Below are positions 5,859-60,037 of a stretch of 64,000 bases of DNA, piece by piece (position 1 is the first letter of the stretch; the number at the start of each line of letters is the position of its first letter). Origin of the DNA: an uncultured Chloroflexia bacterium (GTDB lineage Bacteria > Chloroflexota > Chloroflexia > Chloroflexales > Roseiflexaceae); contig OY969916.1 in assembly GCA_963704535.1 (NCBI GenBank), positions 3,830,841 to 3,894,840 on the forward strand, given 5' to 3'. Made by a program: the position numbers and the translations under genes. The notes under the pieces were generated by a model. That model was not told where the DNA came from and made no database searches. It worked only from the letters and a program-made list of their open reading frames with translations.

Positions 5859-6133
5859 AGACATTATCAAGGTTGGCGGTATACTGTCCGGGATGTTCTT
5901 TCACGGAGTGAAATAATGCCAAAGTTCGACACCATTTTGCAGAATGAGCGGCGCTTACGCGCCTTTACCGGCCTGGATACAGCCACCTTCACAGCCTTCT
6001 TACCCGATTTTACCAAGGCAATGCAACACTATCTCAAGGGCACGACCCTTGATGGCTACGTCCGAGAAGGCGACCGCGCGATTACCTACGCCAACAGCCC
6101 GCTACCCACAGCCTCTGATCGGCTGCTATTCAT

Positions 6134-30977: not shown

Positions 30978-33023
30978 CTAGTTTGCCCCGTTCACCGGTT
31001 TGAGCGGTGTGGTCGGCGTTGTGGCCGGAGCGACAGGCGCGTCCTTGGGCGGCTCGGCCAGTAGGCGCTGCACAATCTGGTCACGCATCGCAGCGACCTC
31101 CGGCCGTGAAGCGTTGGCATTGCCACCGCTGTTGACCTGCACGCCCATCTTCTCGGAGAGCAGCATGGCCAGCAGCCCCTCCATCAAGCTGCTGCCGCTT
31201 GAAGCGCCGTTGCCGTTTCCACCACCCGAGATCGAGATGCGCGGCACCACATCCACCTTCGCCGCCTCGATCGCCTCGGCGAAGCGGTTCATCACCTGCT
31301 GGGTGACCTGGAACTGCGGTCCACCATAGGCGCGGACTTTCTCTTCGATCGCGATTGCCTCGGCAATACCCACACGCGCTGCCTTCTCGGCCTCCGCCTC
31401 GGCGAGTGTCCGAATGGTAGCGGCTTGCTGCACTGCACGCTGATAGTCGGCCTTGCCCTGGTTGCCCTGGACGGTAATGCTGATTTCCGACTCGGTGAGC
31501 GCCTGCTGCTGGCGGGCGCGCGACTCGGCCTCGCGTAGCTCGCGCTCCTTGACCGCCGCCTTCTCCTGACGATTGTAGGTTTCAATCTGCTCTTCAGCGA
31601 TTTGCCGCGACCGCAACTGCGTCAGGATTTGTTCGATCTTCTGGTCCCCGGCTGATGAGGCCGGTGTACCAATTAAGACCTCTTCAAGCTCCAGATTGTA
31701 GCGGGCAAATTTCTCGCGCATCTGCTCACCCGCCAAACTCTGGATGACACTGCGCTCCTGAATGAGCTGAATAAGTGTCCTCACCTGCCCGACGTTTTTA
31801 AAATATGCACTTACCATTGGGTCAAGGGTCTGCTCGACTAGCCGCTTGACATCGCCGAAGCGCTGAATAACGAGCGGTGCCTGCCGATAGTCGATATGCA
31901 CGACGACTGAGAGCGGCAGCGATGGCTCGAAGGCGTCCTTGGTGATGAGCGAGATTTCCGATAGGTTCTCATCCAATCGGTGCGCGCCGCTTTCACCCTT
32001 ATTCCACTTGAGGATGATATTGGTCGTCGGCACCGTGAGCACTTTGCCGGCATAGGTGTTGAAGGCGTATTTGCCTGGCAGCAGGGGGGTACTCCACACA
32101 CCACGGCTGCCTTGCTGTACCATTTCGCCGTGCTTATACTCCTCGCCAGAGATATCCACACCGACATCTCCGGTGTACGAGACAACCACGCCCACGTTGC
32201 CGACCTCGACCACCGTTTTCGGTATCATCTCGACGGTGGCAAACAGGCGGTTGATATAGTAGGTACCCTCGACCAACACCTGAAGTTGCCGGCCACGCTG
32301 CCCGCCCGCCGCGAGGAAGCGCTCAGGGTCTTGAAAAGTGTTGTGATAGGTCTCCTGGTCGGCCGATTCGTTGCCGACTGTCGGTGCGATGATCTCCCCC
32401 TGCGGCAGCGAGGGGCCGTCGTGGACGGTGACGATACCGACCAGATCATCGGCGCCCTTGATAATCACCGGCTGGAAGCCGCCACGCTCTTTGATGACCT
32501 CGGCCATGCGCTTGAATGTAGCTTCCTCCTCGCGGCTCAGCGGTAGATAGAAGACGCTATCTTCGGTAATCACCACGAATTCCGCCAGATTTAAGGCATA
32601 CGTACCTTCACGCAAAATCTGGCGTTGCGGCCCTTGTTGCCCGCCGTTTTGCAGAAACGTTCGCACGTCCTGAAAGTTGTTCGCCGTAACATTGGATGCC
32701 AATGACTGTGCGGGCTGGAGCGGTAGCCCATCACGCGCGAAGATGTAGCCAATCTTGCCCTGGGGAATGGTCACGAGTGGGACGCTGTGAATGCGATATT
32801 GGAAGGGGATGAACACGTGCCAGCCGCCACGAAGGACATCAGGCTGGAAACCGGCCTCACCTTTTAGGGCAATAAATCCGGATTTCACCGACCCGTGACC
32901 GCTCACGAGCTTCTCCACAATGCCAACCTTGTTGTTGGGGATGTAGCGGAGGAACCCGGACATGAAGACGACGAGCAGCACGACACCGATGACGATCGCG
33001 GGGATCAACAGTAGCCCTGACAT
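30978..33023 (-). CDS. Flotillin/SPFH-family protein (YqiK/FloT-like), full length 681 aa, carried inside the element
   Basis: It has an N-terminal TM helix, an SPFH domain, an EA-rich coiled-coil (AEAEAEKAARV) and a Gly-rich C-terminus. It is ~95 % identical and collinear to the two split halves that flank the element. Confidence 0.8.
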   Translation of the reverse strand: MSGLLLIPAIVIGVVLLVVFMSGFLRYIPNNKVGIVEKLVSGHGSVKSGFIALKGEAGFQPDVLRGGWHVFIPFQYRIHSVPLVTIPQGKIGYIFARDGLPLQPAQSLASNVTANNFQDVRTFLQNGGQQGPQRQILREGTYALNLAEFVVITEDSVFYLPLSREEEATFKRMAEVIKERGGFQPVIIKGADDLVGIVTVHDGPSLPQGEIIAPTVGNESADQETYHNTFQDPERFLAAGGQRGRQLQVLVEGTYYINRLFATVEMIPKTVVEVGNVGVVVSYTGDVGVDISGEEYKHGEMVQQGSRGVWSTPLLPGKYAFNTYAGKVLTVPTTNIILKWNKGESGAHRLDENLSEISLITKDAFEPSLPLSVVVHIDYRQAPLVIQRFGDVKRLVEQTLDPMVSAYFKNVGQVRTLIQLIQERSVIQSLAGEQMREKFARYNLELEEVLIGTPASSAGDQKIEQILTQLRSRQIAEEQIETYNRQEKAAVKERELREAESRARQQQALTESEISITVQGNQGKADYQRAVQQAATIRTLAEAEAEKAARVGIAEAIAIEEKVRAYGGPQFQVTQQVMNRFAEAIEAAKVDVVPRISISGGGNGNGASSGSSLMEGLLAMLLSEKMGVQVNSGGNANASRPEVAAMRDQIVQRLLAEPPKDAPVAPATTPTTPLKPVNGAN

Positions 33024-45278: not shown

Positions 45279-45385
45279 CCACGCGCCGGCCGCACAGCCT
45301 TCACCACAAGCAGTGAAGCACAAAAGGAGCGCGGGGACTTCCCCGCGCTCCTTGCTTTCCACTCCACCGATTGAGAACCATCGCC

Positions 45386-46225
45386 CTAGATATACTCAAG
45401 CTGGCTGACCCGCCTGCGCCACTCTGCTTTGATCTCGACCGGCGTTCCCTGGCTGGCTAGAAAATCAAACAACATCCGATTGAAGATATTGGGCTGATCA
45501 AGAAATGGGAAATGATTCGACTTAGACAGCTTAATAACCTGTTGCAAGTATCCATGATCCTCATGGAGAAAGGTCGCCTGCTCCGCGCTGACGATCGCGT
45601 CCTTTTCTCCATACACCGCCAGCAGCGGCAGCTCCAGCCGCGCCAGCTCAGGGCGCAGATCCGTCTCCAGAATCGAGTCGAGCACCCGCCCCACAACCGT
45701 CTCAGTCAAGCTCTCGGTATCTTCGACGATCTCGTTGAGGACTTCCCGATACTCCACTTCCAGCTGGCGTACCAGGCGTGCCCAGACATTCGTGGGCGTG
45801 CTGCGGCCAAACAGCCGTGAAAGCGCCCCTGGACGCGAGATACTCTGGATGTGGGCGCCCTGAATCGGGGTGTTGACTGCCATGACTTTCAGGAACCGCT
45901 GCGGCTGCTCGCTGGCGGCCCGGATGGCGACCATCCCGCCAAGCCCGTGGCCCGCCAGGTTGACTTTGTTCAGCCCCAGATTGTCCATGAAGCCATACAA
46001 CATATCCACATATTCCGAGAGCGAGAATGCACTATCGTGACGGTCCGACTCGCCAAAGCCCCAGAAGTCGATCGCGTAAGCACGGTAGCGCTCGGAAATA
46101 TGGTCCATCGTCGGCAGCCAGTAGCGCCAGGAGCCGAGCCAACTATGCAGGAAGATGATCGGCTGGCCTCGTCGCCCTACCACTTCGTAATGGATCAATC
46201 GGTTGTTCAGATGAATTGCGCTCAC
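45386..46225 (-). CDS. α/β-hydrolase-fold protein; the nucleophile-elbow motif reads GHGLGG (Gly in place of the canonical Ser)
   Basis: The sequence IIFLHSWLGSWRYW...VNLAGHGLGGMVA has the fold signature. Confidence 0.65.
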   Translation of the reverse strand: MSAIHLNNRLIHYEVVGRRGQPIIFLHSWLGSWRYWLPTMDHISERYRAYAIDFWGFGESDRHDSAFSLSEYVDMLYGFMDNLGLNKVNLAGHGLGGMVAIRAASEQPQRFLKVMAVNTPIQGAHIQSISRPGALSRLFGRSTPTNVWARLVRQLEVEYREVLNEIVEDTESLTETVVGRVLDSILETDLRPELARLELPLLAVYGEKDAIVSAEQATFLHEDHGYLQQVIKLSKSNHFPFLDQPNIFNRMLFDFLASQGTPVEIKAEWRRRVSQLEYI

Positions 46226-46251: not shown

Positions 46252-46620
46252 CTACGCCTTCAGCAGCTCCGCCACCCGCCGCACTAACACATCAGGCGCA
46301 TAGGGTTTGATAATATAGTCACTGGCCCCGGCGGCCCATCCTTCCTCAACCTCGGCGCGCTGACCCCTGGCCGAGAGCAAGATGACCGGCGTCGTCTCCA
46401 TACCTGGCGTTTCTCGAATGCCGCGACACACCGCGATGCCGTCCATCTGCGGCATCTTAATGTCGAGCACCACGAGATCCGGCTGCATTTGGCGAGCCAT
46501 GCTCAGTCCATCTGCGCCGTTGCGTGCTTCACTTACCTCATGACCACCCAGCGCGCGTAGGGCGTAGGACGTCATAAACAGGACATCGGGTTCGTCATCT
46601 ATGACCAGGATACGTGCCAC
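46252..46620 (-). CDS. Single-domain response regulator (CheY-like receiver)
   Basis: The phospho-acceptor Asp sits in ILVIDDE...DLVVLDIKMPQMDG, followed by K in YIIKP. Confidence 0.8.
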   Translation of the reverse strand: MARILVIDDEPDVLFMTSYALRALGGHEVSEARNGADGLSMARQMQPDLVVLDIKMPQMDGIAVCRGIRETPGMETTPVILLSARGQRAEVEEGWAAGASDYIIKPYAPDVLVRRVAELLKA

Positions 46621-46654
46621 AAGGGCCCCCGCTATTGTATGCCCACACCGCAGG

Positions 46655-49600
46655 CTACATCGACTGCGGCTGCTCCGGCTGCTCCAGCTGCTCCGGCTGC
46701 GTCACCGGGAGAATAAAACTAAACGTGCTGCCGACGCCCGATTCGCTCTGCACCCACATCTCGCCCCCATGCAGCTCGACAAACGACTTCGCGATCGAAA
46801 GCCCAAGGCCGGTGCCGCCCACTTCGTCGCGGAGCGGGTTGTCGGCGCGGTAGAAGCGGCGGAACAGGTGTTGCTGCTGCTCTGGCGAGATCCCGACCCC
46901 ATTGTCATCGACCTCGGCCTGGAGCAGACCGGCCGGGTTCACAAACGCCCGCAGTGTTACGCGGCCTTGCGGGTACGTGTACTTCACCGCATTCGAGACG
47001 ACGTTCAAGACGACCTGGGTGATCCGCCGTAGATCGGCGGTGATCTGAGGCAGCTCCTCTTTGATGTCGATCTGGACGTTGAGTGATTTTCGGTCGACCT
47101 CGGCACGCAGTGTTTGGAGCACGTCCTGGAAGACATTCTCGATGCTAACCTGCTCGAAACTGAGTTTGATCTTGTCGGCGTCGATACGTCCGATCTCCAG
47201 AATGTCGTTAATCAGATCCATCAGCCGGTTGGCATTATTCTTGACAACTCCCAGGAACGAGAGCTGCCCCTCGCCGATCGGGCCGGCCGCGCCCAGCAAC
47301 AACAGGTCCACATACCCCTTGATCGATGTGAGCGGCGTGCGTAGTTCGTGCGAGACGCTGGAGATAAAGTCGCGCTTGGCCCGATCTGCTTCGATCTCCC
47401 GTGTCACATCGCGAAGCACCGCCACACTCCCGTAGCGAACCCCATCCGGTCGGATCACCGCCGCGAAGTTCATCGCGATCGACTGCGTCGGGTTCGGGAT
47501 CTCCAGCATACCGACATGGCTCTTGCCCCGCTCGTCAAGCGCGCGCAGCCCATCATACAGCCCGGTGTGGATCAGTTCTGCTCGTCGAGTTGATGATCCC
47601 GGCTCGTGATACTCCTTCAGATGGCCCAGCGGCTGTTTCAACGCGAAGGATGCCGGGATACCCAGCACTTGCTCGGCGGCCGGGTTGAACAGCACGACGT
47701 GCTGCTGTTCGTCCAGCACGATCACACCTTCGGTCACGCTCTGGAGGATCGCCTGGCTCTTGCTGGTTTCCTCGCGCTGCTGCTCGTAGGCCTCGGCCAG
47801 CTGTGACGCCAGGTCGTTGATATACGAGTACAGTTCGGCGTTATGAATCACGATCGCGATCTCATTGGCGATCGTACTGAGGAGCTGCAACTGGGCCTCG
47901 CCGAAATAGTCGAGTTTCGGGCTCGACAGGATCAGCACGCCGAGCGGCTCATCTTTGGTGATCAGCGGGACGGCGATCACTGAGCGCACTTCGTCGGCGC
48001 GCCCCTCCTCGCGCAGCCAGCGCCCGTCGTCGCGGACATCGCCGATGTAGATGCCCTTCTCCTGGCTCAACACCCACCCGGCCAAACCTGATCCCTGTGA
48101 GAAGCTGATCGGGATGTTGGTCGACTCGACGGTGCCGTCGGCGGTGAGTACGGCGCGACAGATCAGTGTCCCGGTGCGCGGGTCGCGCAACATAATCGAG
48201 CCGCGCTTGACGCCGACGGAAAGGGAAGCCAGGCCAAGCGCCTTGGTCAGCGTCTCCTCCAGGTCCAGGTTCTCGGTCAGCTCCACGGTGATCTCGTGGA
48301 CCGCCTGGAGGCGTTCTTTCTCGGCCGAGAGCTGGATGTTGGCATCGGCCAGGGCGGCGGTTCGCTCGGCGACCCGGCGCTCCAACTCGGCCGCGTATTG
48401 CTGCTGCTGCTCGACCAGCCGCGCGTTGCGCAGCGCCTGCGCCGCCTGGCTCGCCAGCGCGAAGGCCAGTTGTGCATCCTCCTCATCATACGCGCCGATT
48501 GTGCTGCTGTCCACCGTCAACAGGCCGATCACCTCGTCGTCCAGCAGCAGTGGCGCGCCAATCCAGCCGTGGCAGTGATCGGTCCCTGCCAGCGGAATCC
48601 AGTACGGAGTGTCCTGGGCGTCGTCGAGCACCAGCGGCCGGCGTGTCTGGATGATATGCGCCATGTTGGCATCATCTTCCAGCTTGACGCTGAATTGTTC
48701 GATCTGGGCACGTACCGCTTCCTCGAAGCCGCGTGTCGCGGCGATACGTACGACATTGTCCTCACGCAGCATCAGTGAGGCGGTATCGTAGGGCACCACG
48801 CGCGCTAGCTGATCAAGAATCAGCGCCGTGATCTCGTCCGGTTTGAGGACGCTCGTCAGGGTTTGGGCCACTTCGCGCAGCGTATCGGCGACCCGCCGCC
48901 GCGTCTGCTCGCTCTGGAACAGGCGCGCGCTCTCCAGCGCCTGCCCACATTGGTTGGTCAAGATCGAGAGCAGCGAGATCTCGCGCTCCTGCCAGGTGTG
49001 GGGTCCCCGCGAGCCGAGCCAGATCGCCCCGATTGGCTGATCGTGTGATCCGATCACGGCGCCGAGCGCGCTCTTCAGGTGCATCTGTGTCCCCAGCGCT
49101 GACTCTTCGACCTCGGCCGCAATATTGTTGAAGACCAGCGGACGATCACTGGACAGCAAGCGCCGCGTCATCCCATTCGTGGCGATCTGGATGGTCCGGT
49201 CGGTCGTCTCGAGGTCCTCATTGTCGAGGATGATCTGCTGGGAGATGTTCAATTCTGTATCAAACAGGAACACCGCCGAGACATCGGCGCGCATGAGCTC
49301 CAGCGCGCTCGACGCCACAATTCCGAGAATTTCGCCCGTGTCGAGCGTCCCAGTCAGGGCCACGCTGATCTCGTGCAGTGCTGTGAGCTCCAGCACGCTC
49401 TGGCGCGTTTCGCCCAGTAAGCGCGCGTTCTCCAGCGCGATCGCGCCCCACGAGGCGATCGTCCCTAGCAGCCGGATGTCTTCCTGTGAGTAGGCCGTAT
49501 CGCGCTCGTAGTCCTCGATCCCAATCGCGCCGATGACTCGGTCAGCGGCGATCATGGGCACGCCTAGCCACGAGAGAGAACGGTCGCCGATCGGGGATAG

Positions 49601-52600
49601 ATCACGTGCCTGAATCTCAGCCTCGCGTTGAGGCCCCTGGAGCAACAGCGGCTCGCGCGATCGGATGACATAGGCCGTGGGGCTGTTCGTGAGGAGCACT
49701 GGATCGACGGTGATTCGCTGACCGCGCAGATATTGCAGCGGGAACGAGATCTCCCCGCGTCGCTCATCATACAACGCAACGTAGAAATTGTTCGTGTCAA
49801 GCAAGCGGCTGGTCTGGCGGTAGAGCAGCTCGATCAGATCGTCATAGCGTGTCGCAGCGCTAAGCTCCTGGCCGATCTCATTGAAGGTCGCCAACTCCTC
49901 GATCCGCCGGCCACGCTCCTGGAACAAGCGAGCGTTGTTGATCGCGATCGCAGCCTGGCTCGCGACCGTCGAGACAAACCGCAGATCATCCTGCGAGAAA
50001 GCGTGCTGCTCATAGCTCTGAAGATTGATCACGCCCAACACGTCGTTGCCGGAAATGATCGGCACGACCAGGAACGACTGCTCGAACTGATTCTCAGGCC
50101 CGATACGCCCGCTGCGTACGTCGAGCCCCATCTGGTCGGCCTGCTCAATCGTGTCGAGCAGCAGCGTCTGTCGATTGCGGATGACCCAGCCGTTAGTTCC
50201 AAACTGCAGTGGTGTCGGTGTGAACGAAAGCCGTTGCCCCTGGTCATAGAAGACCGGGAACCAGATCACATCGGTGCGTGCGTCGTAGAGGCCGATCATG
50301 GAGGTGCTGACGTCGATCACGCGACCGAGTTCACTGTGGAGCCGCTCCAGCACATCTTGAAGGTCCAGGGTTGACGTGACCGCGCTGCCGATATCCTTGA
50401 TAGCGATGACCTCGCGAAGCCGGCGCTCGCGCTCGTCGAACAGCCATGCGTTTGCGATCGCCGTCGCCGCCTGGCTCGCTACGGTGGCCAAGAAGCGCAG
50501 ATCGTCTTCGTCATAGGCGTTCGGCTCATAGCTCTGCACATTGAGGATGCCAAGCACCTGGTCGCCGCGGATGATCGGCACGCCCAGCCACGAAGAGATC
50601 TGTCGCTCACCCAGCACCGGCAGCCCCGTCGAGATCGCGTCCACCTCCTGCTGGGAGCGCAGCAGCAGTGGTCGTCGCTCCATAATCACGCGGTTAACCA
50701 GGCCTGCCCCATCGTCGATCACGATCTCTTCGTCATCCCGGATCGGCACTCCATCGACCCAGCAGACCGGGAAACTCAGACGCCGTGTCTCTCGATCATA
50801 TAGCGCGATAAACGAGTTTGCCGTATTGAGCACCTCGCTGATCCCCTGGTGCAGTGCGGTGAGCAGTTCGTCTTGCTCCAGGGTCGCGCTGATCTCCTGG
50901 CTGATATGATTGAGGGTCGTCAGCTCGGAGATCCGTCGCTCGCGTTCTTCGAACAGACGCGCGTTCTCTAGCGCCATCGCCGCCTGGTCGGCCATACCAG
51001 CGAGCAGCGTTACTTCGTCGGCGCTGAAGTCACGCTGGTAGATGGTCATGACACTCAAGACGCCGATCGTCCGCTCGCGGTAGACCACCGGGACGCCCAT
51101 GAATGAAGTGTACTGATGGACGCGATTGAACTCTGGATAAAGCGAGCCGCCCTCGTGCGCCACATCGGCCACGATCAGCGGCCGGCCAGTCGCGGCCACC
51201 TGCCCCGTCAACCCCTGGCCGACAGGTGGGCGCAACTCACGAGCAACCTCCTCCGGGATGCCGAGCATCGCCGCCGGCACCAGAACATCATCGCTCGTGA
51301 TCGTCCACAGCGCGACGGTATTGACGATCAGCTGGCGGCCGACCACCTCCATCAGCATATCGAGCACCTCGCGCGGCTTGAGCGACGAACTCAGGACGCG
51401 CGCGGCCTCCAACAGCGTCTCGAGCTCGCCAACCTTGCGCTGTAGCGCGGTGGCGCTGCGCTGGATCTCCTCGAACAGCCGGGCTTTCTCGATCGCCGTG
51501 GCCGCCTGATTAGCAATGGTCTGGCAGAGCTCGATCTCCTGCGGGCTGAAATTGCGCTGGCGCCCGACGCTGTCCAGTTGGATCGTTCCGACGATGCTCC
51601 CGCCGACGATCAGGGGAATCATCGCGACCGAGCGCACGTCCAGCGTACGCAGCACCTCTTGTGACTGTATGAATCGAGAGTCGGCCAGGACGTCGAAGGA
51701 GATCAGCGGCCCCTGGTGCTTGTCGAGCCAGGCAGTAAGTGGATTGTCTTGCAGGGGGATTTGCAAGCTCGCCGTCAGATCAGTCGAGATATACTCCGCC
51801 GCTAGGGTTGCGAAGCCGGTCGCACGATCGTACAAGAACATCCCGGCCTGGTCGGCGCCCGTAGCGCGTGCCATAGCCTCAGTCGCGGCCTGTAGGATCT
51901 CAGTGATCTCCAGGGTTGCGACCGCCACCGACGAAACGCGGTTGAGCAAGCCAAGCTGGTCGACCTGCTCCTGCGCTCGCGCGAAGAGCCGCGCATTCTG
52001 CACCCCCAGCGACACCTGCGCACCAACGCTGACGAGGAAGCCCTCATCGCGTGCGTTGAACACATAGGCCCGATGGCTGGTCACGGCAAGTGAGCCGATC
52101 GGCGTGCCGTCATAGGCGAGAATGGGAATGCCCAGGTACGAGCGTGTGATGCTATCTTCCTGGGAGCTAATGAACATCACCTGTAGGTTGTCGTAGGCGC
52201 TGATCTCCTGCTTGATATCGCCGAGCCGTAGCGGGCGGCTATTGCGGATGATCCAGCCTGCCAACGTCCCCTCGCTGAAATCTTCCGCGAGCGGTCGCTC
52301 GGTATCGAGCAGCGCCTCAGTGCCGTCGATCACCAGCACGCGTGTGGTCTGGCGCTCACGGTTGAGCAGTGTCATACTGACGCCGCCGGCTCCGAGCACC
52401 TCACGCAAGACATGGTCGATTCCCTCGACCATCGGGCGCAACTCAAGCGTCGAGTTGGTCACGCGGCCGATGCGCCCCAGGGCGTCGAGTTCGGCGATCT
52501 GTCGCTCGCGTTCAGCGAAGAGACGGGCGTTCTGAGCCCCCAGCGCAACCTGGCTGGCGACCGTCGTCATAAACGCAAGTTCACGCTCGCTATAGCGGTT

Positions 52601-55600
52601 CGGCGTATAGCTCTGCACCGCCAGTACCCCGACGACCTCGCCCTCGCCAACGAGCAGTGGTACGCCCAGCCACGAGGCCGACCTCCGCTCGACATTGCCG
52701 AAAGGTGCCGGTTGGAGGCCGTACGTCTCACCCTCGACTCGCAGGTCGCCAAACAAGAGCGGCTGGCGATGCGTGATAATCCATTCCACCAGGCTGCCCG
52801 AGGGCGGCGGCTCGCTATGCTGGCGGTAGGTGCGCTGCCCCTCATCCACCAGTAGCGCGCCGGTAAATTCATTCCGGTCGCTATGGTAGACAAAGCCGCA
52901 GAACGCGTCGATGGTCAGGAAGTCGGCCAGGCAGTCATAGATCTGGCCCAGGAGCCGCTCGATGTCGAGGGTCGAGCTAATAATAGTCCCGATCCGGTTA
53001 ATGACATCCAGCTCATTGATCCGCCGCTCACGCTCGTGGAACAGCCGTACGTTCTCCATCGCCACCGCGAGCTGATTGGCCAGCGTTGAGAGGAAGCGGG
53101 CGTCACGGTCGGTGAACGCATACGGCGCGAAGTTCTGGACCGAGAGCACGCCGATGACCTGGTTCTGGCTGCGCAGCGGGATGCCGATCCACGAGCGGAT
53201 CTGCTCGCCGAGCGTGACCGCCTGGACCGGGAGCCGATCCTCTTCCGCCAGGTAGTCGTGGATGTGGATGACCTCGCCTGAGTTGATCACCCAGCTCGTC
53301 AGGCCACTCTTCGGCAGTGTGGTCTTATGGCGTTTCGCCAGGATCTCGCCTTCACGCTTGAACAGCTCGAAGTTCAGCAACTCGCGCTGCGAATCATAGG
53401 ACGCCACATAGAAGAAGGACGGCGTCCCCATATAAGCCACGATCTCGTTATAAACGCGCTCCAGCAGGTCGTCCAGGTCAAGCGTCGATACCGTCGCAGC
53501 GCCGACCTGGAACAGCGCCGTCATCTGGTCGGCCTGGCTGCGGGCCTCGCTCAACAGCCGCGCGTTCTCAACTGCAATCGCGGCCTGGCTGGCAAAGATC
53601 TCGAGCGGCTCGGCCGAGCGGCGCGTTGGGCGCTGGTGGTCGTACGGGTCATCGACCGCCATCATACCGATCAGCTTGGCGCGGGTATTATAGAGCGGGA
53701 CGAACAAGGCATCGTCGAGCCCCCACTCGGGGCTCTGCGGCGATTTGGTCGTGCCGAGGTCCATACTGTCGCCCTGGTCGATCCCCACCACAATCTCGCG
53801 CATGATATCGCCGGGCACAAAGAAGCAGCGACCGAGCCGGAAGCGCTTATCCATAAAGCGGTGAGCCAACTCGACCGGGAATGGTGACTTCCGCCGGCGC
53901 TCGATCTCGGCCAGCGGCAGGCCCGCGCCGGTGATCGCGTACATCAGCAAAGCGTCGTCCAGATCGACGAGGTGGAAGATCACCGAGCGAAAGCGTGCCG
54001 TCTCGACCACACTGAACGCAATCTGCTCCAGCACATCCTCGAGCGAGCGGTCGGCGCGCAACGCCTGGCCGATGTCGAGCACCTCGTTCAGCATGCTGGC
54101 CCGCTGCTGAAGCAGGGCGCGCTGGCGGTACTGTTCGTTGTAGCGCTGGGTGTTGCCGATCGCCAGCGCGGCCTGGTCGGCTAGCGCGCGCACAAACTCA
54201 AGCGCATCGTGGTTGAATGAGCGTGGGATCTGGCTGTGCAGATTGACGACGCCGACAACCTCGGCCTCATAGAAGATCGGCACCGCCAGCACCGACGAGA
54301 TCATCGGCCCGATACTGCTCAGGCGATCGTCGCTCGCGACTTCGTCGACGAGAGCCGGCTCACCGCTTGCCATCGCCAATTCAGCCGTCGTTTTCCCGCT
54401 GCTGACGACCTGGTGGAGCAACTGCTCATAATCCGCCTCGTTGTAGCCGATCGCGGCGATCACCCGGATCGGCGCCTCCTTGCCGTCTTCATTTAAGAGC
54501 TGGCCGTTGGCCGTCGCAAGCAGGCGCGTCCCCTCGTCCTGGGCGAAAGCGCGCAGCGCCTCCTCGAAGGCCAGGCCCTCGCGCAGCGCGATATAGCCGA
54601 TCGTCGCCGGGGTCGCGCGCAGCGCCTCCTCCAGCGCAAAGCCAAGGATATGGCCAAGCGAGAGATTCGCGGTAAGCTGGCGGCTGATCCGCTGGAGCGC
54701 CGTCAACTGTTGAACACGGCTGCGCAGGTGGGCATCGGCCTGCTCGAAGCGCCGGACATTGGAGATCGCCTGGGCCGCCTGACCGGCGATAATCGTGAGA
54801 ATCCGTTCGTCCGCTACCGCGAAATGAGCGGGCCGATCGCTGAGCAATCCCAAGGTGCCGACGAGCTGATCGCCCACCTGGAGCGGCAAGCCAAGATAGC
54901 TCTGGACTGTTGACCCATCGGCGAGTTTCGAGAACAGGGGGCGCACCGGGGGGCGGCGGAAATCCGCCAGGCGTAACGCCCGCCGATGCCGCGCGATCCA
55001 GCCGGTCAGCCCATCGGCGATCTGGTAAGTCGGCATCTGCGCGTCATCGTAGCGAATGCCGCGTGTAAGCGCGCCGCGCAGGAGCTGCGACTCGGCGTCA
55101 TACAGACAGATCTCGGCCCCGACGAAGGGCACGAGTGACTGGACGCCCTCCACAATCGCTTCGAGCATCTCCTCCAGTGTCAGATCAGCTTCAAGTCGCC
55201 GGCTGATCGTCTGAAGCTTCTCCAGCTCACTCGCACGGCGCTGCTCGCTGATATACAGTTGCGCGTTGACGATCGTGGCGGCGACCTGGCTGGCCAGGGT
55301 CTGGGCCAGATTGACCTCTGCGCGGCTGAAACGGTGGCGTCGATCACCATAGCCGATACTCAGCAGTCCAACCGCGCGATCCTTGACCCTGAGCGCCAAC
55401 AGCAGCGCGCTACAGTAGCCAAACCGGCGCAGCACCTCGCTCCCCTCGTCGGTCTGCGGGGCGGCCGGGTCCGGCGCGAGCGCTAGTGTTTCGCCGGAAT
55501 GCAGCAGCTTCGCGAGCACACCATGGGCTTTCATATGATAGCGTGGCCCGCCCGTATCCTCGCGCCCATCGGCCGTATAGGAGGCCACCTCGCGGAGCAC

Positions 55601-56800
55601 TGCCGTGTTGTGTTGCTCACTCAGGTGCAGGATGCAACGATCCGCACTCATCGCCAGCGCGATATTCTCGGCCACACGCGTCAGCATCGGCTCGATCTGC
55701 AGCGTCGAGCTCAACACTTGTCCATTCTCATAAAGCACGAACAGCTCACGAGCCCGCTGCTGCTGCTGGGCAAAGAGCTGTGCGTTGCGGATGACCAACG
55801 CGGCCGGCTTGGCGAACGCCTCGATCAGCAGCTTATCTGACTCACTGAAACGCGCCTCTTCCCGATCATGGGTCAGCGCCAGCACGCCGATCAACTCATC
55901 CTGAACCAGCAGCGGCACGCCAATACCGGCATGCAGCGTTTCCTCGGCGAAATGGGGCAACTGGTAGGGATAGTGCTGGTAGTCCTCGATCAACAGTGTC
56001 GTACGCTGTAGCGCGACCTGGCCGGACAATCCCTGCCCGCGCGTCAGCCGTGTGCCGACATAATCGCGGTTGAGCCCGTGCCCCACAATCAGCTCCAGGT
56101 TCCCATCCTCGACTGCGGTGTAGATAGCGCCGCCGGAGGCCCCGCACAGCTCGATCGCCCGCTCAAGCAGTGACCGGAGCATTTCATGGAGATTAATCTG
56201 GCCGGTCAGATCGAAATTCAGCGCCGACGCGGCCGCGAGCGTGGCGCGTTCGCGCTGGCGCTCGGCGTCACGCTGCTGCATGCTGATCAGTAATTCGATC
56301 TGGAACCGGAGCGCCTGGAGGAAGGGTGGGGTAAGCGACGACTCGGCGGTGGGGGGGACACCAAGCAATAGTGCCCCGATCGGCTGGTCATCGCGGTGCA
56401 GCGGGATCTCGATCGCATCTGCCGGAAGGCCGTTGCCGTTACGCGCCAACATCTGCTGGCGCAGCTCGTCGTCAAGCCCCCAGCCTGCCGATACGCTCGT
56501 ATCAGCGCTGGTATGGAGCAGGAAGAGTCCCCATGGACATGGAAGACGGGCGCAACCAAGATCAGCGATGCGTTGCGCGAGGCCCTGTGCATCGTGAATA
56601 GTTGCGCTGTCTCTCCCATAGATCGCCAGCTCGGTCAGAAACTCCCAGGCCCGAACCAGCGATGACTCTACTGTTGTCGTGTCCATATCCAGGGACTTGC
56701 TCCTTCCAGGGATCGGTTGATGCGAACCGTCGCTGGATGGTGGTACGTTGGTGTGAACGTCGTAGGAGCTGAGAACCACAGCCCATTGCCACGTCCCCAC
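46655..56800 (-). CDS. Giant multi-GAF sensor histidine kinase (3381 aa; ~16 tandem GAF domains, one PAS, HisKA, HATPase_c)
   Basis: The C-terminus has PAS (ILQSVTEGVIVLDEQ...), an H-box (SHELRTPLTSIKGY), an N/G1 box (DDNGVGIS) and a G2 box (GGTGLGLSIAK). The GAF inter-domain linker (...NARLFEERERRIxEL) recurs about 16 times. An alternative start lies at 56686. Confidence 0.85.
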   Translation of the reverse strand: MGTWQWAVVLSSYDVHTNVPPSSDGSHQPIPGRSKSLDMDTTTVESSLVRAWEFLTELAIYGRDSATIHDAQGLAQRIADLGCARLPCPWGLFLLHTSADTSVSAGWGLDDELRQQMLARNGNGLPADAIEIPLHRDDQPIGALLLGVPPTAESSLTPPFLQALRFQIELLISMQQRDAERQRERATLAAASALNFDLTGQINLHEMLRSLLERAIELCGASGGAIYTAVEDGNLELIVGHGLNRDYVGTRLTRGQGLSGQVALQRTTLLIEDYQHYPYQLPHFAEETLHAGIGVPLLVQDELIGVLALTHDREEARFSESDKLLIEAFAKPAALVIRNAQLFAQQQQRARELFVLYENGQVLSSTLQIEPMLTRVAENIALAMSADRCILHLSEQHNTAVLREVASYTADGREDTGGPRYHMKAHGVLAKLLHSGETLALAPDPAAPQTDEGSEVLRRFGYCSALLLALRVKDRAVGLLSIGYGDRRHRFSRAEVNLAQTLASQVAATIVNAQLYISEQRRASELEKLQTISRRLEADLTLEEMLEAIVEGVQSLVPFVGAEICLYDAESQLLRGALTRGIRYDDAQMPTYQIADGLTGWIARHRRALRLADFRRPPVRPLFSKLADGSTVQSYLGLPLQVGDQLVGTLGLLSDRPAHFAVADERILTIIAGQAAQAISNVRRFEQADAHLRSRVQQLTALQRISRQLTANLSLGHILGFALEEALRATPATIGYIALREGLAFEEALRAFAQDEGTRLLATANGQLLNEDGKEAPIRVIAAIGYNEADYEQLLHQVVSSGKTTAELAMASGEPALVDEVASDDRLSSIGPMISSVLAVPIFYEAEVVGVVNLHSQIPRSFNHDALEFVRALADQAALAIGNTQRYNEQYRQRALLQQRASMLNEVLDIGQALRADRSLEDVLEQIAFSVVETARFRSVIFHLVDLDDALLMYAITGAGLPLAEIERRRKSPFPVELAHRFMDKRFRLGRCFFVPGDIMREIVVGIDQGDSMDLGTTKSPQSPEWGLDDALFVPLYNTRAKLIGMMAVDDPYDHQRPTRRSAEPLEIFASQAAIAVENARLLSEARSQADQMTALFQVGAATVSTLDLDDLLERVYNEIVAYMGTPSFFYVASYDSQRELLNFELFKREGEILAKRHKTTLPKSGLTSWVINSGEVIHIHDYLAEEDRLPVQAVTLGEQIRSWIGIPLRSQNQVIGVLSVQNFAPYAFTDRDARFLSTLANQLAVAMENVRLFHERERRINELDVINRIGTIISSTLDIERLLGQIYDCLADFLTIDAFCGFVYHSDRNEFTGALLVDEGQRTYRQHSEPPPSGSLVEWIITHRQPLLFGDLRVEGETYGLQPAPFGNVERRSASWLGVPLLVGEGEVVGVLAVQSYTPNRYSERELAFMTTVASQVALGAQNARLFAERERQIAELDALGRIGRVTNSTLELRPMVEGIDHVLREVLGAGGVSMTLLNRERQTTRVLVIDGTEALLDTERPLAEDFSEGTLAGWIIRNSRPLRLGDIKQEISAYDNLQVMFISSQEDSITRSYLGIPILAYDGTPIGSLAVTSHRAYVFNARDEGFLVSVGAQVSLGVQNARLFARAQEQVDQLGLLNRVSSVAVATLEITEILQAATEAMARATGADQAGMFLYDRATGFATLAAEYISTDLTASLQIPLQDNPLTAWLDKHQGPLISFDVLADSRFIQSQEVLRTLDVRSVAMIPLIVGGSIVGTIQLDSVGRQRNFSPQEIELCQTIANQAATAIEKARLFEEIQRSATALQRKVGELETLLEAARVLSSSLKPREVLDMLMEVVGRQLIVNTVALWTITSDDVLVPAAMLGIPEEVARELRPPVGQGLTGQVAATGRPLIVADVAHEGGSLYPEFNRVHQYTSFMGVPVVYRERTIGVLSVMTIYQRDFSADEVTLLAGMADQAAMALENARLFEERERRISELTTLNHISQEISATLEQDELLTALHQGISEVLNTANSFIALYDRETRRLSFPVCWVDGVPIRDDEEIVIDDGAGLVNRVIMERRPLLLRSQQEVDAISTGLPVLGERQISSWLGVPIIRGDQVLGILNVQSYEPNAYDEDDLRFLATVASQAATAIANAWLFDERERRLREVIAIKDIGSAVTSTLDLQDVLERLHSELGRVIDVSTSMIGLYDARTDVIWFPVFYDQGQRLSFTPTPLQFGTNGWVIRNRQTLLLDTIEQADQMGLDVRSGRIGPENQFEQSFLVVPIISGNDVLGVINLQSYEQHAFSQDDLRFVSTVASQAAIAINNARLFQERGRRIEELATFNEIGQELSAATRYDDLIELLYRQTSRLLDTNNFYVALYDERRGEISFPLQYLRGQRITVDPVLLTNSPTAYVIRSREPLLLQGPQREAEIQARDLSPIGDRSLSWLGVPMIAADRVIGAIGIEDYERDTAYSQEDIRLLGTIASWGAIALENARLLGETRQSVLELTALHEISVALTGTLDTGEILGIVASSALELMRADVSAVFLFDTELNISQQIILDNEDLETTDRTIQIATNGMTRRLLSSDRPLVFNNIAAEVEESALGTQMHLKSALGAVIGSHDQPIGAIWLGSRGPHTWQEREISLLSILTNQCGQALESARLFQSEQTRRRVADTLREVAQTLTSVLKPDEITALILDQLARVVPYDTASLMLREDNVVRIAATRGFEEAVRAQIEQFSVKLEDDANMAHIIQTRRPLVLDDAQDTPYWIPLAGTDHCHGWIGAPLLLDDEVIGLLTVDSSTIGAYDEEDAQLAFALASQAAQALRNARLVEQQQQYAAELERRVAERTAALADANIQLSAEKERLQAVHEITVELTENLDLEETLTKALGLASLSVGVKRGSIMLRDPRTGTLICRAVLTADGTVESTNIPISFSQGSGLAGWVLSQEKGIYIGDVRDDGRWLREEGRADEVRSVIAVPLITKDEPLGVLILSSPKLDYFGEAQLQLLSTIANEIAIVIHNAELYSYINDLASQLAEAYEQQREETSKSQAILQSVTEGVIVLDEQQHVVLFNPAAEQVLGIPASFALKQPLGHLKEYHEPGSSTRRAELIHTGLYDGLRALDERGKSHVGMLEIPNPTQSIAMNFAAVIRPDGVRYGSVAVLRDVTREIEADRAKRDFISSVSHELRTPLTSIKGYVDLLLLGAAGPIGEGQLSFLGVVKNNANRLMDLINDILEIGRIDADKIKLSFEQVSIENVFQDVLQTLRAEVDRKSLNVQIDIKEELPQITADLRRITQVVLNVVSNAVKYTYPQGRVTLRAFVNPAGLLQAEVDDNGVGISPEQQQHLFRRFYRADNPLRDEVGGTGLGLSIAKSFVELHGGEMWVQSESGVGSTFSFILPVTQPEQLEQPEQPQSM

Positions 56801-56856
56801 CGAGGCTGCGCGGCGGGGAACGGAAGGTCAGGAACTGGGTATCCTCTGCTAGCTCG

Positions 56857-57801
56857 TTACGCTCGCCCATAGCTAACATGGCTCTTGCGGCCCAGCTCAC
56901 GTGCCTCGGCCAGGGCCTTTTGGCGGGCATCCTCAGCAGTTTCACTGAGTTCGCGGATGTCATAGAATGGTCCGTCTTCGCTGGACAGCACGCCGATCGA
57001 CAGCGACATCAGCGGAACCCGGCGCTGGATGCCCTGCTCATCCGTTGATCATAATACCGCCTGCCGCCGATCCTTGTAATTGTAGTGCAGGCCGATCTCG
57101 GCATCGAAACGATCACGCAGCCGCTCACAGATCGCGCGCAGATGTTCCGGCGTCGATGTGACCACAAAGTCCGGGCCGACGACCATCTGGCCGATGAAAT
57201 CATCGGAGCCGCCCAGCTCATTGACCACCTCATTCAGCAGCAGAGCCGTGAACTTGAGCACATCTTCGCCGACCACCGCCCCATACGTCTGGGTGAAGGT
57301 CTCAAACCCATTGATATGGGCCTGGGCCATCGCCCAGCCGGTGCTCGAAAGCATCTGGCGATACTGGTCGTTGATCAGTTCAGCCGTCGGCAGATTGGTC
57401 ACCGGGTGGGCCAGGTTCTTCTGGCGGGCGCGGTCAAGCGCCCCCTTGACGATCGTATGAACCTCTTCGATATCGAACGGTTTGACGATGTAATACTCCG
57501 CCTGGACTTCACCAAGGCCCTTGAGCCTGTCTTGTTTCTCACCCCGTGCAGTCAGAAAGATGATCGGAATATGCCGCGTACGTGCGCTATGCCGAAGCGA
57601 CTTGCCGATCTCATACCCCTCCATATCAGGCAGATTGACATCCAGCAGCGCGAGATTCGGCGGAGTCTTACGGCACATTTCGAGCGCGATCTGTCCGCGC
57701 ATCGCCGTCAGCACCTCATATCCCTGAGAGGTGAAATAGATCTTGAGCAGGCTTGAGATGTCGGGGGCGTCTTCAACAACAAGAATCTTTTCCTTGCTCA
57801 C
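56857..57801 (-). CDS. Response-regulator receiver fused to a degenerate GGDEF domain (VGPDF in place of GG[DE]EF), with an in-frame TGA at complement(57046..57048)
   Basis: The REC region is ILVVEDAPD...LALLDVNLPDMEG...YIVKP. The GGDEF-like region is INGFETFTQTYGAVVGEDVL...GQMVVGPDFVVT. After the TGA, the same frame continues ...RVPLMSLSIGVLS...AEDARQKALAEARELGRKSHV, a GGDEF C-terminal consensus, to a TAA at 56857. Confidence 0.55.
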
Positions 57802-57813
57802 AGGGCTATCCTC

Positions 57814-59206
57814 CTAGTGCCGCACCCGCGTGGCCTTTGGCAGCGACATTTGAAGCGGCTCAATATCGGTAACTTTCGGCGCGTCCGGGTCCATTTGCTT
57901 TGGCCACAAGTAGATCTCGCGGACCGGTTCGCCGTTTTCATCGGTCTCAGATTCCTCGGTGTTTGTGACGTGCCGCACATTGCGGCCAATTACCGATTCT
58001 GGGTCGGCATAGATCAGCGTCGTATTCGATCCGATCATCCGCGCCGGGTAGATCACAAATCCGCTCCCGATCTTGACAGTTATGACCGACCGCCGAGCCA
58101 AGCACCGGCAGACCGACCTCCTCCAGCTTGGGACGCTCGGCGCCTTTACGGTGGTGGAAGGTATGCAGTGGGCGGTTGCGCAGGTCGAAGTCGGTGAAGA
58201 TATTGCCGGCGCCGATAAATGTATTACGCCCGACAACGCACATCTGGAGACAGCTCAACTGCGCGATCATCGAGTTTTCCATCAGGGTGGTCATAAACAG
58301 AGCGGCATTCCAGGGTAGGTAACAGCGATCGCTGATCACGCTGAGCATCACCTGGCTGCCCTGCATGATCGTGACATTGTTGCCGATTAGACTATTGGTA
58401 ATCACCACCCCGGCGCCGATGTTGACATTATTACCGATGACCGTCGGCCCATGAATCACCGCTGTCGGGTCGATCGAGCAGTTCTTACCGACCTTGACCA
58501 GCCGTGAGCTGGACAGGAAATGGTTGCGCCAGCGCGGCGCAAAGGGATTGAGCTTATGCCCCAGTGTCGTCAGCGAGATCGCCAGCTTCTCCTTCCAACT
58601 GTCTTCGACGCGCTGCTCATGCACGCGGCCCCAACCGAACACGCCGAACGGTGAGTTCGCCAGGAACACATGCACCCAGCTCTCGATCGAGAGAAACACT
58701 CGTAGGGGAACCTGGAAGATCAGATCGCCCTGGTTGGGCGCCATATAGCTGGGGATATGATAATATCCCATCTCGCGCGGGCAGGTGTCGATCACCAACG
58801 GCTTTGGCTCTTCGGTCACGCCGTTCGGGTAATAGAACAGATCGGCTACATAGACATTGCGTTGCGGTTCGAGGGTGATACCGTCCTGCAAACGCAAGGC
58901 GTGGGCCGTGATCGAACGATCGTCGCGGGCGAAGGCGATCTGGCAAGCGTGGCCGCTAGCCTTCGCCTGCGCGATGAACGTATCGATCAGCAGGTCGTTG
59001 AAAAAGAGGTTGTCCCGATGGACGAGCAGTTCCTCGCGCTCGCTGGGGATCTCAGACAGGGAGTCCACTTCCAGTGCACCACGGCAATGGTGGGTCAACA
59101 AATCGCGCTGGAGCAACCAGAGCGGCTTGTTGAGGATTCGCAGGTCGCGTGCCGGCTCGCCGAAGGGGGGAATGGGTGTGCGCTCTCGGATAACGATGCG
59201 TTTCAT
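57814..59206 (-). CDS. Left-handed β-helix (hexapeptide-repeat) protein of unknown function, with an apparent frameshift near 58080
   Basis: It has the hexapeptide repeats IGNNVNIGAGVVITNSLIGNNVTI. The reading frame of 57947..59206 degenerates after ~58090, while the coding-like sequence continues in the frame of 57814..58236. Confidence 0.45.
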
Positions 59207-59503
59207 AACTAGCGGCTCCCCTTTCTTTCGGCCGGAGGGCGATGACGCTGGGGTGGACCTCCTCCGGGGCCCGTGCCCCTTTACTATACAGGATAGCGCC
59301 GGATTATCTCAAGCCCTACAGATTACATTCGCATTACGCGATAGCGTCAAGCAAGCGCTCGATGCCTTCCAGGCGCGCCTCCGTGCGTTAGTCCACCGGG
59401 TCCTTGTCGATTGCGAATATGCAGCTGTTGTGACCCATGCGCCCGGCACTCGATCTCTTCGAGATGGAACGAGTGACCGCCAGTAACCCAGGTAAGCGCT
59501 TCC

Positions 59504-60037
59504 TCAAGAATCCCTTGTGCCAGGTGGCAGCAGGGACTGATCGCTCTTGCGACCCCAGCATGGTGGACATTTCTCGATGATGTAGATGAACTGACCTTTG
59601 CGCTCCTCAACTCGCGTGGGCTGGTCGCTGAAGCGGTCAAACGTCTGTGCGGTCGCGTTGAGCACGATCTTCATCTTCATCGTCATGGGCATGAGTTTAA
59701 GCGCTAGGTCGGCCATGCCGAGCAGCGGCCCAAACTCCTTGAGGCCCAAGTTGAAGGCGTAGCGGCCGGCGCGCAGCTCCATGCCGCGCGCTCCACGCGG
59801 ACCATACATGGTCTCTGTGGACTGTGAGATGGTGGACAGGTCCACGAAGGGGAACTCACGTTTCAGGTTGCTGGCGGGGTAGTTGTTGACCAGGTGGCGT
59901 GCGCCGGCTAGGTTCAACAACGCGTTCACCCCATTGCGACCCATGACGTCCTCAAGGCTGATCAGGTACAAGCGCCCAATCAGGTTGGGATAGAATCGCG
60001 GTTCAAGTTCGTTCGCGTTGCCGCGCTCGTCTGGCAT
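59504..60037 (-). CDS. V4R-domain protein (4-vinyl-reductase-like small-molecule-binding domain)
   Basis: It has a C-terminal CPPCWG motif and a ~177-aa size. The start is taken at the internal Met (MPDERG...), and the track start at 60133 is less likely. Confidence 0.45.
   Translation of the reverse strand: MPDERGNANELEPRFYPNLIGRLYLISLEDVMGRNGVNALLNLAGARHLVNNYPASNLKREFPFVDLSTISQSTETMYGPRGARGMELRAGRYAFNLGLKEFGPLLGMADLALKLMPMTMKMKIVLNATAQTFDRFSDQPTRVEERKGQFIYIIEKCPPCWGRKSDQSLLPPGTRDS

Follow-up and report, generated by a model that had tools for sequence, protein, structure and literature searches.

A histidine kinase with sixteen tandem GAF domains in a conserved two-component cassette of Chloroflexota

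A 64,000-nucleotide stretch of a contig from an uncultured Chloroflexia bacterium (hereafter, the window) carries a 10-kb gene for a histidine kinase, in which sixteen GAF domains precede the PAS, HisKA, and HATPase_c domains, together with genes for two receiver proteins, a Ser-less α/β-hydrolase-fold protein, a hexapeptide-repeat protein, and a V4R-domain protein. At a probability that we put at roughly 0.55, the kinase is a helical-spine protein with few sensor domains, and its locus is the form taken in Chloroflexales by an ancient two-component cassette that spans the phylum. This reading draws on the domain content, conservation, and synteny of the cassette, on the loss of catalytic motifs in two of the partner proteins, and on the predicted helical linkage of the GAF domains.

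Domains and history of the kinase

The open reading frame (ORF) of 3381 codons reported in a first-pass annotation of the window is present exactly as claimed (Table 1). Orthologues begin at the residue equivalent to Met39 (MDTTT...), and a Shine–Dalgarno-like sequence (GGAAGGAG) is located 13 nt 5' of the Met39 ATG at 56686; the true product is therefore probably a protein of 3343 residues. Pfam matched 16 stretches of the kinase to GAF_2 (summed score, 789 bits) and 16 to GAF, followed by PAS, HisKA, and HATPase_c, and a hidden Markov model (HMM) made from the kinase's own repeats delineated 16 back-to-back units of 160–197 residues, so that the domain count given in the first-pass annotation holds by both routes. 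The segment preceding GAF1 aligned with the GAF-unit profile in hhalign (probability, 82%; E, 1.1e-5; template positions 3–167) as a degenerate seventeenth domain, with the lowest ortholog conservation in the kinase (0.40). An N-[ATV]-x-[LR]-[FYLV] helix closes all 16 units; the longer linker NARLFEERERRIxEL, formerly described as ending each GAF, occurs in its full form in only about five (GAF6, 7, 10, 11, and 12). The linker before GAF16 is 25 residues longer than the others.

The C-terminal region has the features of a HisKA-family sensor histidine kinase. The HisKA domain shows an ortholog identity of 0.93, with the predicted phospho-acceptor His3151 in the H box SHELRTPL (from residue 3150), and the HATPase_c motifs are complete (N box, NAVKYT; G1, DNGVG; G2, GTGLGL). 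No transmembrane segment was found in the kinase, which is predicted to be a soluble cytoplasmic protein. Pfam detected neither HPt nor Response_reg in the kinase, and no HPt gene was found among its neighbors; the phosphorelay formerly proposed thus reduces to one kinase and two receivers.

The length of the gene raises the question of a mis-assembly, in which the long ORF would have arisen by collapse or expansion of repeats, and four neighboring genes do carry single-base indels. However, the repeats are only 60–73% identical to each other in DNA, Tandem Repeats Finder detected no tandem array in the kinase DNA, and tblastn with five orthologues found no off-frame similarity inside the kinase ORF. 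Moreover, a protein search retrieved full-length orthologues of 3270–3336 residues with 57–67% identity from many independent assemblies (those with names being Kouleothrix sp. or Roseiflexaceae), and co-linear orthologues with 16 GAFs are encoded in no fewer than 13 independent assemblies. On the basis of the low repeat identity, the negative repeat search, and the co-linear orthologues, an assembly artefact was rejected as having a negligible chance of being correct, and we take the 10-kb gene to be real and old.

Paralogous GAF units within the kinase are 20–46% identical (mean, 30%), whereas every one of the 16 has a positional orthologue in Kouleothrix at 45–71% identity. A neighbor-joining tree of the units of five family members, which addresses the proposal to distinguish duplication from fusion by a phylogeny of the individual GAFs, grouped them by position and not by species; it also placed units 6, 7, 8, 11, 12, and 13 in one superclade, whose members appear to have arisen by internal duplication. 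Where family members are named, they belong to Chloroflexus, Roseiflexus, Kouleothrix, or Oscillochloridaceae, and the relatives contain 17, 16, 15, 13 (Chloroflexus and Oscillochloridaceae), or 9–10 (Roseiflexus) units, differing by gain or loss of whole units with GAF4, 5, 6, 7, 10, and 16 always retained. Even kinases of only ~25% identity, from lineages including Anaerolineae, share the collinear anchor units GAF3, 4, 5, 15, and 16. Unrelated poly-GAF kinases reach 19 units, so that sixteen is a high but not a unique number. Family membership was not followed by generic kinase motifs: in a contig scan with VSHELRTPL and TGLGL[SA]IAK, 79 of the 80 loci were unrelated kinases and only one (L004) belonged to the family.

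Structural information was obtained from an AlphaFold2 model covering GAF10–13, based on an alignment of 15 orthologues (mean predicted local distance difference test score, pLDDT, 84.9). In this model, each of the three junctions is formed by one continuous helix of 46 residues, which serves both as the final helix of the preceding GAF and as the opening helix of the following one. The best Foldseek matches of the model were the tandem GAFs of CyaB2, PDE5A, PDE2A, and PDE6 and the GAF-PHY region of phytochromes (for PDE5A, template modeling (TM) score of 0.62–0.68 over ~360 columns), and the same tandem-GAF proteins led a sequence search of the Protein Data Bank (PDB) with the kinase (CyaB2, 1YKD; E, 1.2e-29). 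Both the profile matches in 16 stretches and the modeled fold, which matches solved GAF tandems, identify the repeats as GAF domains. Because the junction spacing given by hmmalign is noisy by ±1–2 residues, helix lengths in the model and the spacing of an invariant Gly were used instead; the Gly recurs every 167–178 residues at 12 of the 15 junctions, and the window and Kouleothrix agree in their junction lengths, including those of the longer junctions (GAF9–GAF10 and GAF15–GAF16). The 16 GAFs and the degenerate N-terminal one would thus be strung on a continuous helical spine. As the junction helices are arranged like those in the solved GAF-A/GAF-B tandems of PDE and CyaB2, the kinase is, by analogy, probably a parallel dimer, and such a dimer would form a rod several tens of nanometers long.

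Conservation along the units was compared among 13 sixteen-GAF orthologues by dividing each unit into regions, the middle one being where known GAFs form their ligand pocket. The inter-domain helices (identity, 0.55–0.90) and the last two GAF strands (0.48–0.89) are well conserved. In 13 of the 16 units, conservation is lowest in the middle region (0.27–0.47), with GAF10 (0.70), GAF16 (0.61), and GAF3 (0.55) as the exceptions. GAF10, the best-conserved unit with an overall identity of 0.75, is retained throughout the family at 64–71% identity, even in the Roseiflexus form with nine GAFs. Most of the family-invariant polar residues are located in GAF10 and GAF16, those of the latter including Arg2866, Asp2873, Cys2881, Asp2925, Arg2927, Trp2928, and Arg2934, and even Anaerolineae-type kinases have a last GAF recognizable as GAF16 (score, 212–258, as compared with ≤147 for the next unit). 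GAF10, GAF16, and perhaps GAF3 are therefore probable candidates for signal-binding domains. Since the pocket region is conserved only in GAF10 and GAF16, and less so in GAF3, the pattern suggests that sensing is confined to a few domains of a transmission spine rather than shared among sixteen independent inputs, the latter having been the earlier proposal.

Partner proteins and conservation of the cassette

The cassette is kept in Kouleothrix, Roseiflexaceae, Chloroflexus, and other Chloroflexales loci, and comparison of these loci bore out the suggestion that the genes form an operon with an order conserved in related genomes. The closest relative is a metagenome contig from JGI (the sibling contig), whose hydrolase-like protein is 98% identical to that of the window. 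Four genes make up the core, namely those for the REC–degenerate-GGDEF protein (REC-dGGDEF), the poly-GAF kinase, the single-domain receiver, and the tail-bearing hydrolase-like protein, and this core recurs with the kinases of ~25% identity mentioned above. The surroundings of two distant tail-bearing hydrolase-fold proteins were examined. In one case, a 3145-residue kinase with 14 GAFs is directly followed by a 126-residue receiver and then the tail-bearing protein; in the other, a 2475-residue kinase with 11 GAFs is followed in the same way by a receiver of 124–126 residues and the tail-bearing protein, and upstream of this cassette lies a gene for a REC-GGDEF protein, with the motif GGDNF, that is clearly an orthologue of the Chloroflexales protein. 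Conservation of the four-gene core thus extends over two classes, Chloroflexia and Anaerolineae. The core exists without V4R in other lineages of Chloroflexota, among them Anaerolineae, and the hexapeptide and V4R genes appear to be Chloroflexales additions. A survey of the literature on multi-GAF or tandem-GAF kinases and on Chloroflexus, Kouleothrix, and Roseiflexus found no description of poly-GAF kinases or of the cassette, whose proteins carry only generic names in databases.

REC-dGGDEF of the window is 85% identical to its Kouleothrix orthologue over 313 residues, in one frame and through the stop (tblastn). The ORF as written gives a receiver match alone in Pfam; the C-terminal GGDEF domain is recognized in the Chloroflexus orthologue (27.1 bits; cut-off, 23.8). 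Orthologues are 68–87% identical across Chloroflexales, above the conservation of the kinase, with a mean column identity of 82% over six loci, and Glu10, Asp11, Asp54, Thr84, and Lys107 are invariant in their receivers. PleD, the best PDB match (in two stretches), shares the REC + GGDEF architecture. In contrast to PleD, the signature motif is VGPDF, VGQSF, or GGDNF in all orthologues and the metal-binding DxD is replaced by H/R-I-N (in Chloroflexales, VGPDF or VGQSF with HIN); by reading of the alignment, the RxxD inhibitory site is also lost (S/G-x-x-D). The GG(D/E)EF motif and the metal-binding Asp of active diguanylate cyclases are thus missing throughout the family, in agreement with the view that this domain is non-catalytic, and it is predicted to be neither a cyclase nor a canonical receptor for cyclic di-GMP.

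The stand-alone receiver downstream of the kinase is present and intact, as had been described. It was absent from the Kouleothrix, Chloroflexus, and Roseiflexaceae loci compared. L086, the family member that diverges most, has a receiver of 58% identity in the same place. The protein also occurs in the sibling contig and in distant cassettes (L088, L089, and L090); because of its presence in L086 and the distant cassettes, it is probably ancestral to the cassette. No DNA-binding domain was found by Pfam or NCBIfam in either receiver protein or in the other partners. Judged from their sequences, namely the H, N, G1, and G2 boxes and the invariant receiver residues, the kinase and the receivers are predicted to be functional.

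The gene for the α/β-hydrolase-fold protein is located just outside the region covered by the first-pass annotation (46252–60037). Its nucleophile elbow, G-H-G-[LM]-G-G, has Gly at the nucleophile position in all 7 syntenic and all 120 database homologues (127/127), with the catalytic Asp and His retained. There is accordingly no Ser, Cys, or Asp in the G-x-S-x-G elbow as in catalytic α/β hydrolases, and the protein is likely non-catalytic, as previously supposed. It ends in a conserved, basic tail (IKAEWRRRVSQLEYI), of the form IKxEWRRRVSQxEY. A search against 1.84 billion representatives revealed a wider family in Chloroflexota, Anaerolineae included, of hydrolase-fold proteins of ~260 residues, some longer, with the hallmark C-terminal tail [LI]K[ED]EW[RK]RRxR; of 59 full-length tail-bearing members, 38 have Gly or Ala at the nucleophile position and 17 have Ser. 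A role in docking is possible for the tail peptide. KAI2-like proteins gave full-length PDB matches (E, ~1e-12). Recruitment of this fold into signaling is known from RsbQ (with RsbP), KAI2/D14, GID1, and the neuroligins, the last of which carry Gly in place of the nucleophile Ser. RsbQ, KAI2, and D14 keep the Ser-His-Asp triad and hydrolyze their ligands, whereas the present family has Gly for Ser in the 127 close homologues and the basic tail in addition. No curated NCBIfam model scored above its cut-off for any of the accessory proteins.

As for the Chloroflexales additions, the β-helix of the hexapeptide protein is evident from Pfam (Hexapep, 50.6 bits), and its N-domain gave no sequence match. 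The AlphaFold2 model is weak (pLDDT, 58.6); all of its Foldseek matches were sugar-1-phosphate nucleotidylyltransferases, likewise weak (E ≥ 1e-3; TM ≤ 0.25), and in the place of the glycine-rich loop (G-x-G-T-R-x) of the GlmU/ST0452 type of nucleotidylyltransferase/acetyltransferase the alignment reads RERTPIPPFGEPARDL. The N-domain thus weakly resembles a nucleotidyltransferase. Several NCBI records of homologues (P0297, P0298, and P0317 among them) are labeled "multidrug transporter", which appears to be a propagated mis-annotation, as Pfam sees hexapeptide/β-helix domains only. On a 1.8-Mb contig (L085, 5509–7860), gene calling joins the hexapeptide and REC-dGGDEF genes into a single 783-residue fusion; considered as Rosetta-stone evidence, it was set aside because its hexapeptide portion appears to end in an out-of-frame C-terminal tail, probably produced by an indel. 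The V4R gene is 92% identical to its Kouleothrix orthologue, spread across three frames (tblastn); two +1 insertions split the domain, and the ORF as written has no Pfam match. The Kouleothrix orthologue matches Pfam V4R at 43 bits (cut-off, 31), and the NCBIfam BchJ model matched the V4R protein weakly over its full length (E, 1.5e-4, below the family cut-off). Because the window ORFs are broken, the V4R and GGDEF domains were identified via these intact orthologues (85–92% identical).

The genes are closely spaced, with gaps of 12 nt (hexapeptide to REC-dGGDEF), 34 nt (kinase to receiver), and 26 nt (receiver to hydrolase-like gene). A consensus scan found a terminator-like hairpin beginning 33 nt past the hydrolase-like stop, which probably marks the end of the operon.

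Indels and surroundings of the locus

The three upstream genes that had been described, for the REC-GGDEF, hexapeptide, and V4R proteins, do exist, but all are interrupted by indels in the window. In total, seven single-base indels were found in ~4 kb of four flanking genes, and none in the kinase, the single receiver, or the hydrolase-like gene. The V4R gene has the two +1 insertions at ~59536 and ~59439, within the last 50 codons (DNA alignment), and the hexapeptide gene has one frameshift near 58073. In REC-dGGDEF, a –1 deletion at ~57062 and a +1 insertion at ~57043, 22 nt apart in the DNA alignment with three orthologues, create an in-frame TGA at 57049–57051. The fourth gene, for OppC, is called as a protein of 273 residues in the sibling contig (98% identity), spanning both frameshift positions of the window, which suggests that the window indels are errors or recent events; either assembly errors or true pseudogenisation could have produced them. 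Look-ups by exact match gave no hit for the truncated window proteins. The kinase gene is rich in GATC (150 sites; 14.8 per kb, as compared with the window mean of 7.8 per kb and ~3.6 per kb expected from base composition at 60% GC), which could reflect codon usage or a connection with methylation. A link between indels and GATC was considered and judged uninformative: four of the seven indels are located within ~5 nt of a GATC, but the kinase, with its 150 sites, has no frameshift.

On the downstream side, the neighborhood at 36814–45278 is syntenic with Roseiflexaceae-type contigs (L003 and L085), in the order ketoacyl synthase, a 240-residue ORF at the position of RNase III, RmlD-like epimerase, SBP, OppB, and OppC. 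The chromosomal setting of the cassette is thus a conserved one, adjoining an island rich in mobile elements (1–34000). The GC content of the window falls to 42–45% at 8–12 kb and 20–22 kb, and the segment of lowest GC (~42%) holds a 912-residue ORF (8458–11196) with no Pfam match at E ≤ 1e-5. Divergent from the V4R gene, a 485-residue multi-pass membrane protein without a Pfam or NCBIfam match is encoded at 60275–61732; Kouleothrix has it at the same position (58% identity), and glycosyltransferase genes adjoin it in Kouleothrix and L085.

Table 1. Positions of the features in the window and, for domains, residues of the kinase reading frame
Feature	Position	Strand	Kinase residues	Remarks
Poly-GAF sensor histidine kinase ORF	46655..56800	–		3381 codons
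Probable kinase coding sequence	46655..56686	–	from Met39	3343 aa
Degenerate N-terminal GAF-like domain (17th)	56225..56686	–	39–192	conserved CPWG motif
Array of 16 GAF domains	47801..56224	–		Pfam and own HMM
GAF1			193–352	
GAF2			355–525	
GAF3			527–694	
GAF4			700–896	
GAF5			905–1092	
GAF6			1094–1263	
GAF7			1265–1437	
GAF8			1439–1615	
GAF9			1617–1785	
GAF10	50924..51421	–	1794–1959	best-conserved unit
GAF11			1961–2130	
GAF12			2132–2302	
GAF13			2304–2471	
GAF14			2473–2637	
GAF15			2639–2805	
GAF16	47801..48307	–	2832–3000	kinase-proximal unit
PAS region	47426..47773	–	~3010–3125	Pfam PAS, PAS_8 at 3015–3061
HisKA / DHp	47177..47380	–	3141–3208	Pfam 59.7 bits (cut-off 26.9)
HATPase_c	46700..47035	–	3256–3367	Pfam 98 bits (cut-off 26.4)
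Single-domain CheY-like receiver	46252..46620	–		intact; acceptor Asp53; Pfam Response_reg 99.7 bits
α/β-Hydrolase-fold protein	45386..46225	–		intact; GHGLGG; Pfam Abhydrolase_1 82 bits
Response regulator, receiver + degenerate GGDEF	56857..57801	–		interrupted by indels
Hexapeptide-repeat (left-handed β-helix) protein	57814..59206	–		Pfam Hexapep, LbH_EIF2B, GMPPB_C
V4R-domain (BchJ-like) small protein	59388..60037	–		two +1 insertions
Terminator-like hairpin	45324..45353	–		13-bp stem, 10 G-C pairs; pattern match only
Promoter-like site 5' of hexapeptide gene	59283..59312	–		10/12 consensus; pattern match only
Promoter-like site 5' of V4R gene	60105–60133			10/12 consensus; pattern match only
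OppC	44320–45278			two frameshifts vs orthologues
SPFH/Band-7 paralogue	1229..2461			
Serine recombinase	2451..4094			
DDE_5 transposase, copy	5550..7445			
IS110 transposase	11502..12917			
IS4/5 transposase	13846..14715			
NACHT NTPase	14770..16155			
Tyrosine integrase	16536..17501			
DDE_5 transposase, copy	18109..19404			
DDE_5 transposase, copy	22589..23992			
Replic_Relax protein	27760..28776			
SPFH/Band-7 paralogue	30978..33023			

Proposed mechanism, alternatives, and known systems

In the mechanism that we favor, a minority of the GAFs (GAF10, the kinase-proximal GAF16, and perhaps GAF3) would bind the signal or signals, and the other units would mainly carry or modulate a conformational signal along the spine to the PAS-DHp-CA region. 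Autophosphorylation at His3151 would be followed by phosphotransfer to the two receivers, those of REC-dGGDEF and the single-domain protein, the latter of which could serve as a second output or as a phosphate sink. Because none of the partners has a DNA-binding domain, the output would be exerted through protein–protein contact, with the dead GGDEF domain and the Ser-less hydrolase-fold protein acting as adaptors or co-receptors; to this set, Chloroflexales would add the nucleotidyltransferase-like/β-helix protein and the V4R protein as a small-molecule binder.

Several points weigh against this proposal. Its ligand, dimer, phosphotransfer, and output rest on analogy, and the AlphaFold2 model is a four-unit monomer with a predicted TM score of 0.52, which leaves the inter-domain geometry and the rod length weak. 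Poor conservation of the middle region is also typical of surface loops in any domain, so that the contrast between units hints at, but does not prove, a lack of ligands in the other 13 GAFs. The sole fusion of the hexapeptide and receiver genes seen (in L085) looks artefactual and lends no support to a physical link. Finally, real indels in the window would mean that this organism has a partly decayed system.

The alternatives differ mainly in what they ask of the GAF array. The first-pass annotation had taken the kinase for an integrator of many inputs, in which each of the 16 GAFs binds its own ligand, possibly cyclic nucleotides. Specialized domains are indeed expected to show the observed combination of positional conservation and divergence of paralogues, and the closest solved relatives (CyaB2, PDE5, and DevS) are ligand-binding tandem GAFs; nevertheless, we consider this unlikely, as most units are least conserved in their pocket region, and units have been gained or lost (9 to 17) between lineages without loss of the cassette. 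Cyclic-nucleotide binding in particular finds no support in the NKFDE signature of PDE and CyaB GAFs, the Asn-Lys of which is absent from all 16 units, where the F...D/E part alone is present; the residues aligned to the CyaB2 Asn-Lys (LVNKK) are QS, TH, GY, LS, HS, DD, QN, TS, DS, MT, ED, GS, or SS. At the other extreme, the array could be ligand-free and purely structural, a rod, ruler, or scaffold that sets a distance, forms a higher-order assembly in these filamentous bacteria, or recruits partners, with the kinase reporting the assembly state or a signal received via PAS or via partners such as the V4R and hydrolase-like proteins. The uniform unit length, the identical 46-residue junction helices, the conservation peaks in the linker helices, and the variable unit number would all suit such a rod, and the small-molecule-binding types of partner (V4R and α/β-hydrolase fold) could do the sensing. 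We doubt it, since GAF10 and GAF16 are conserved throughout, pocket region and invariant polar residues included, and a simple spacer is unlikely to keep one-to-one orthology of 16 diverged units.

More specific still is the idea of a tetrapyrrole, redox, or light sensor, in which heme, a bilin, or a (bacterio)chlorophyll intermediate delivered by the BchJ-like V4R protein would serve as the ligand of some GAFs. It would accord with the largely phototrophic character of Chloroflexales, from which the named family members come, with the weak BchJ match of the V4R protein, and with the fact that phytochromes and DevS, both among the sequence or fold matches, bind tetrapyrroles via GAFs. Yet Cys is absent from six of the 16 GAFs (GAF4, 6, 8, 10, 12, and 13), and of the one or two Cys in each of the other ten, Cys2881 alone is family-invariant; no phytochrome- or cyanobacteriochrome-type signature was noticed, albeit no search was aimed at one, and the core cassette exists without V4R outside Chloroflexales. 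We therefore regard a tetrapyrrole sensor as very improbable. A bolder possibility, rather unlikely, is that the cassette is a distinct phylum-wide machine, in which a dimeric rod of 9–19 helix-linked GAFs, with a length of tens of nanometers, would work as a long-range mechanical transmission line or ruler, with pseudoenzymes docked on it (e.g., via the basic C-terminal peptide of the hydrolase-like protein) and a non-transcriptional output, for instance in envelope or filament biogenesis. If true, this would be a mode of two-component signaling without characterized precedent.

The helical-spine kinase with few sensors, to which we return, resembles a HisKA two-component system whose sensing GAFs are arranged in tandem and coupled by helices. 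In CyaB2 (1YKD) and the GAF-A/GAF-B tandems of PDE2A, PDE5A, and PDE6, a long continuous helix likewise connects the GAFs, and the signal passes along helices to a C-terminal catalytic domain, an arrangement shared with the window protein. Those tandems, however, have two GAFs instead of 16–17, carry NKFDE and bind cAMP or cGMP, and act on a cyclase or phosphodiesterase, whereas the output domain here is a HisKA kinase. DevS/DosS is closer in being a cytoplasmic HisKA kinase with N-terminal GAF sensing (PDB sequence match, E ~1e-21), but has two GAFs, one of them heme-binding, and works with a DNA-binding regulator, whereas the receivers of the window are free of DNA-binding domains. Long arrays of mutually diverged GAFs 5' of a signaling output are shared with multi-GAF cyanobacteriochromes; for example, the sensor NpF2164/PtxD has seven GAFs, which bind bilins via a conserved Cys and at least six of which are chromophorylated (PMC5812497). 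The kinase described here differs in its six Cys-less GAFs and mostly poorly conserved pockets, and its host belongs to Chloroflexota instead of cyanobacteria. The domain types and the kind of histidine kinase are thus already known, and what is new is the architecture and the system.

GAF is among the commonest sensor modules of bacteria. The natural series of 9, 10, 13, 15, 16, and 17 units, orthologous position by position and joined with uniform 46-residue helices, makes long-range transmission through more than two GAFs directly testable. Together with its constant partners, the kinase defines an unstudied cassette across classes of Chloroflexota, whose hosts include cultured phototrophs (Roseiflexus castenholzii and Chloroflexus) and the wastewater filament Kouleothrix.

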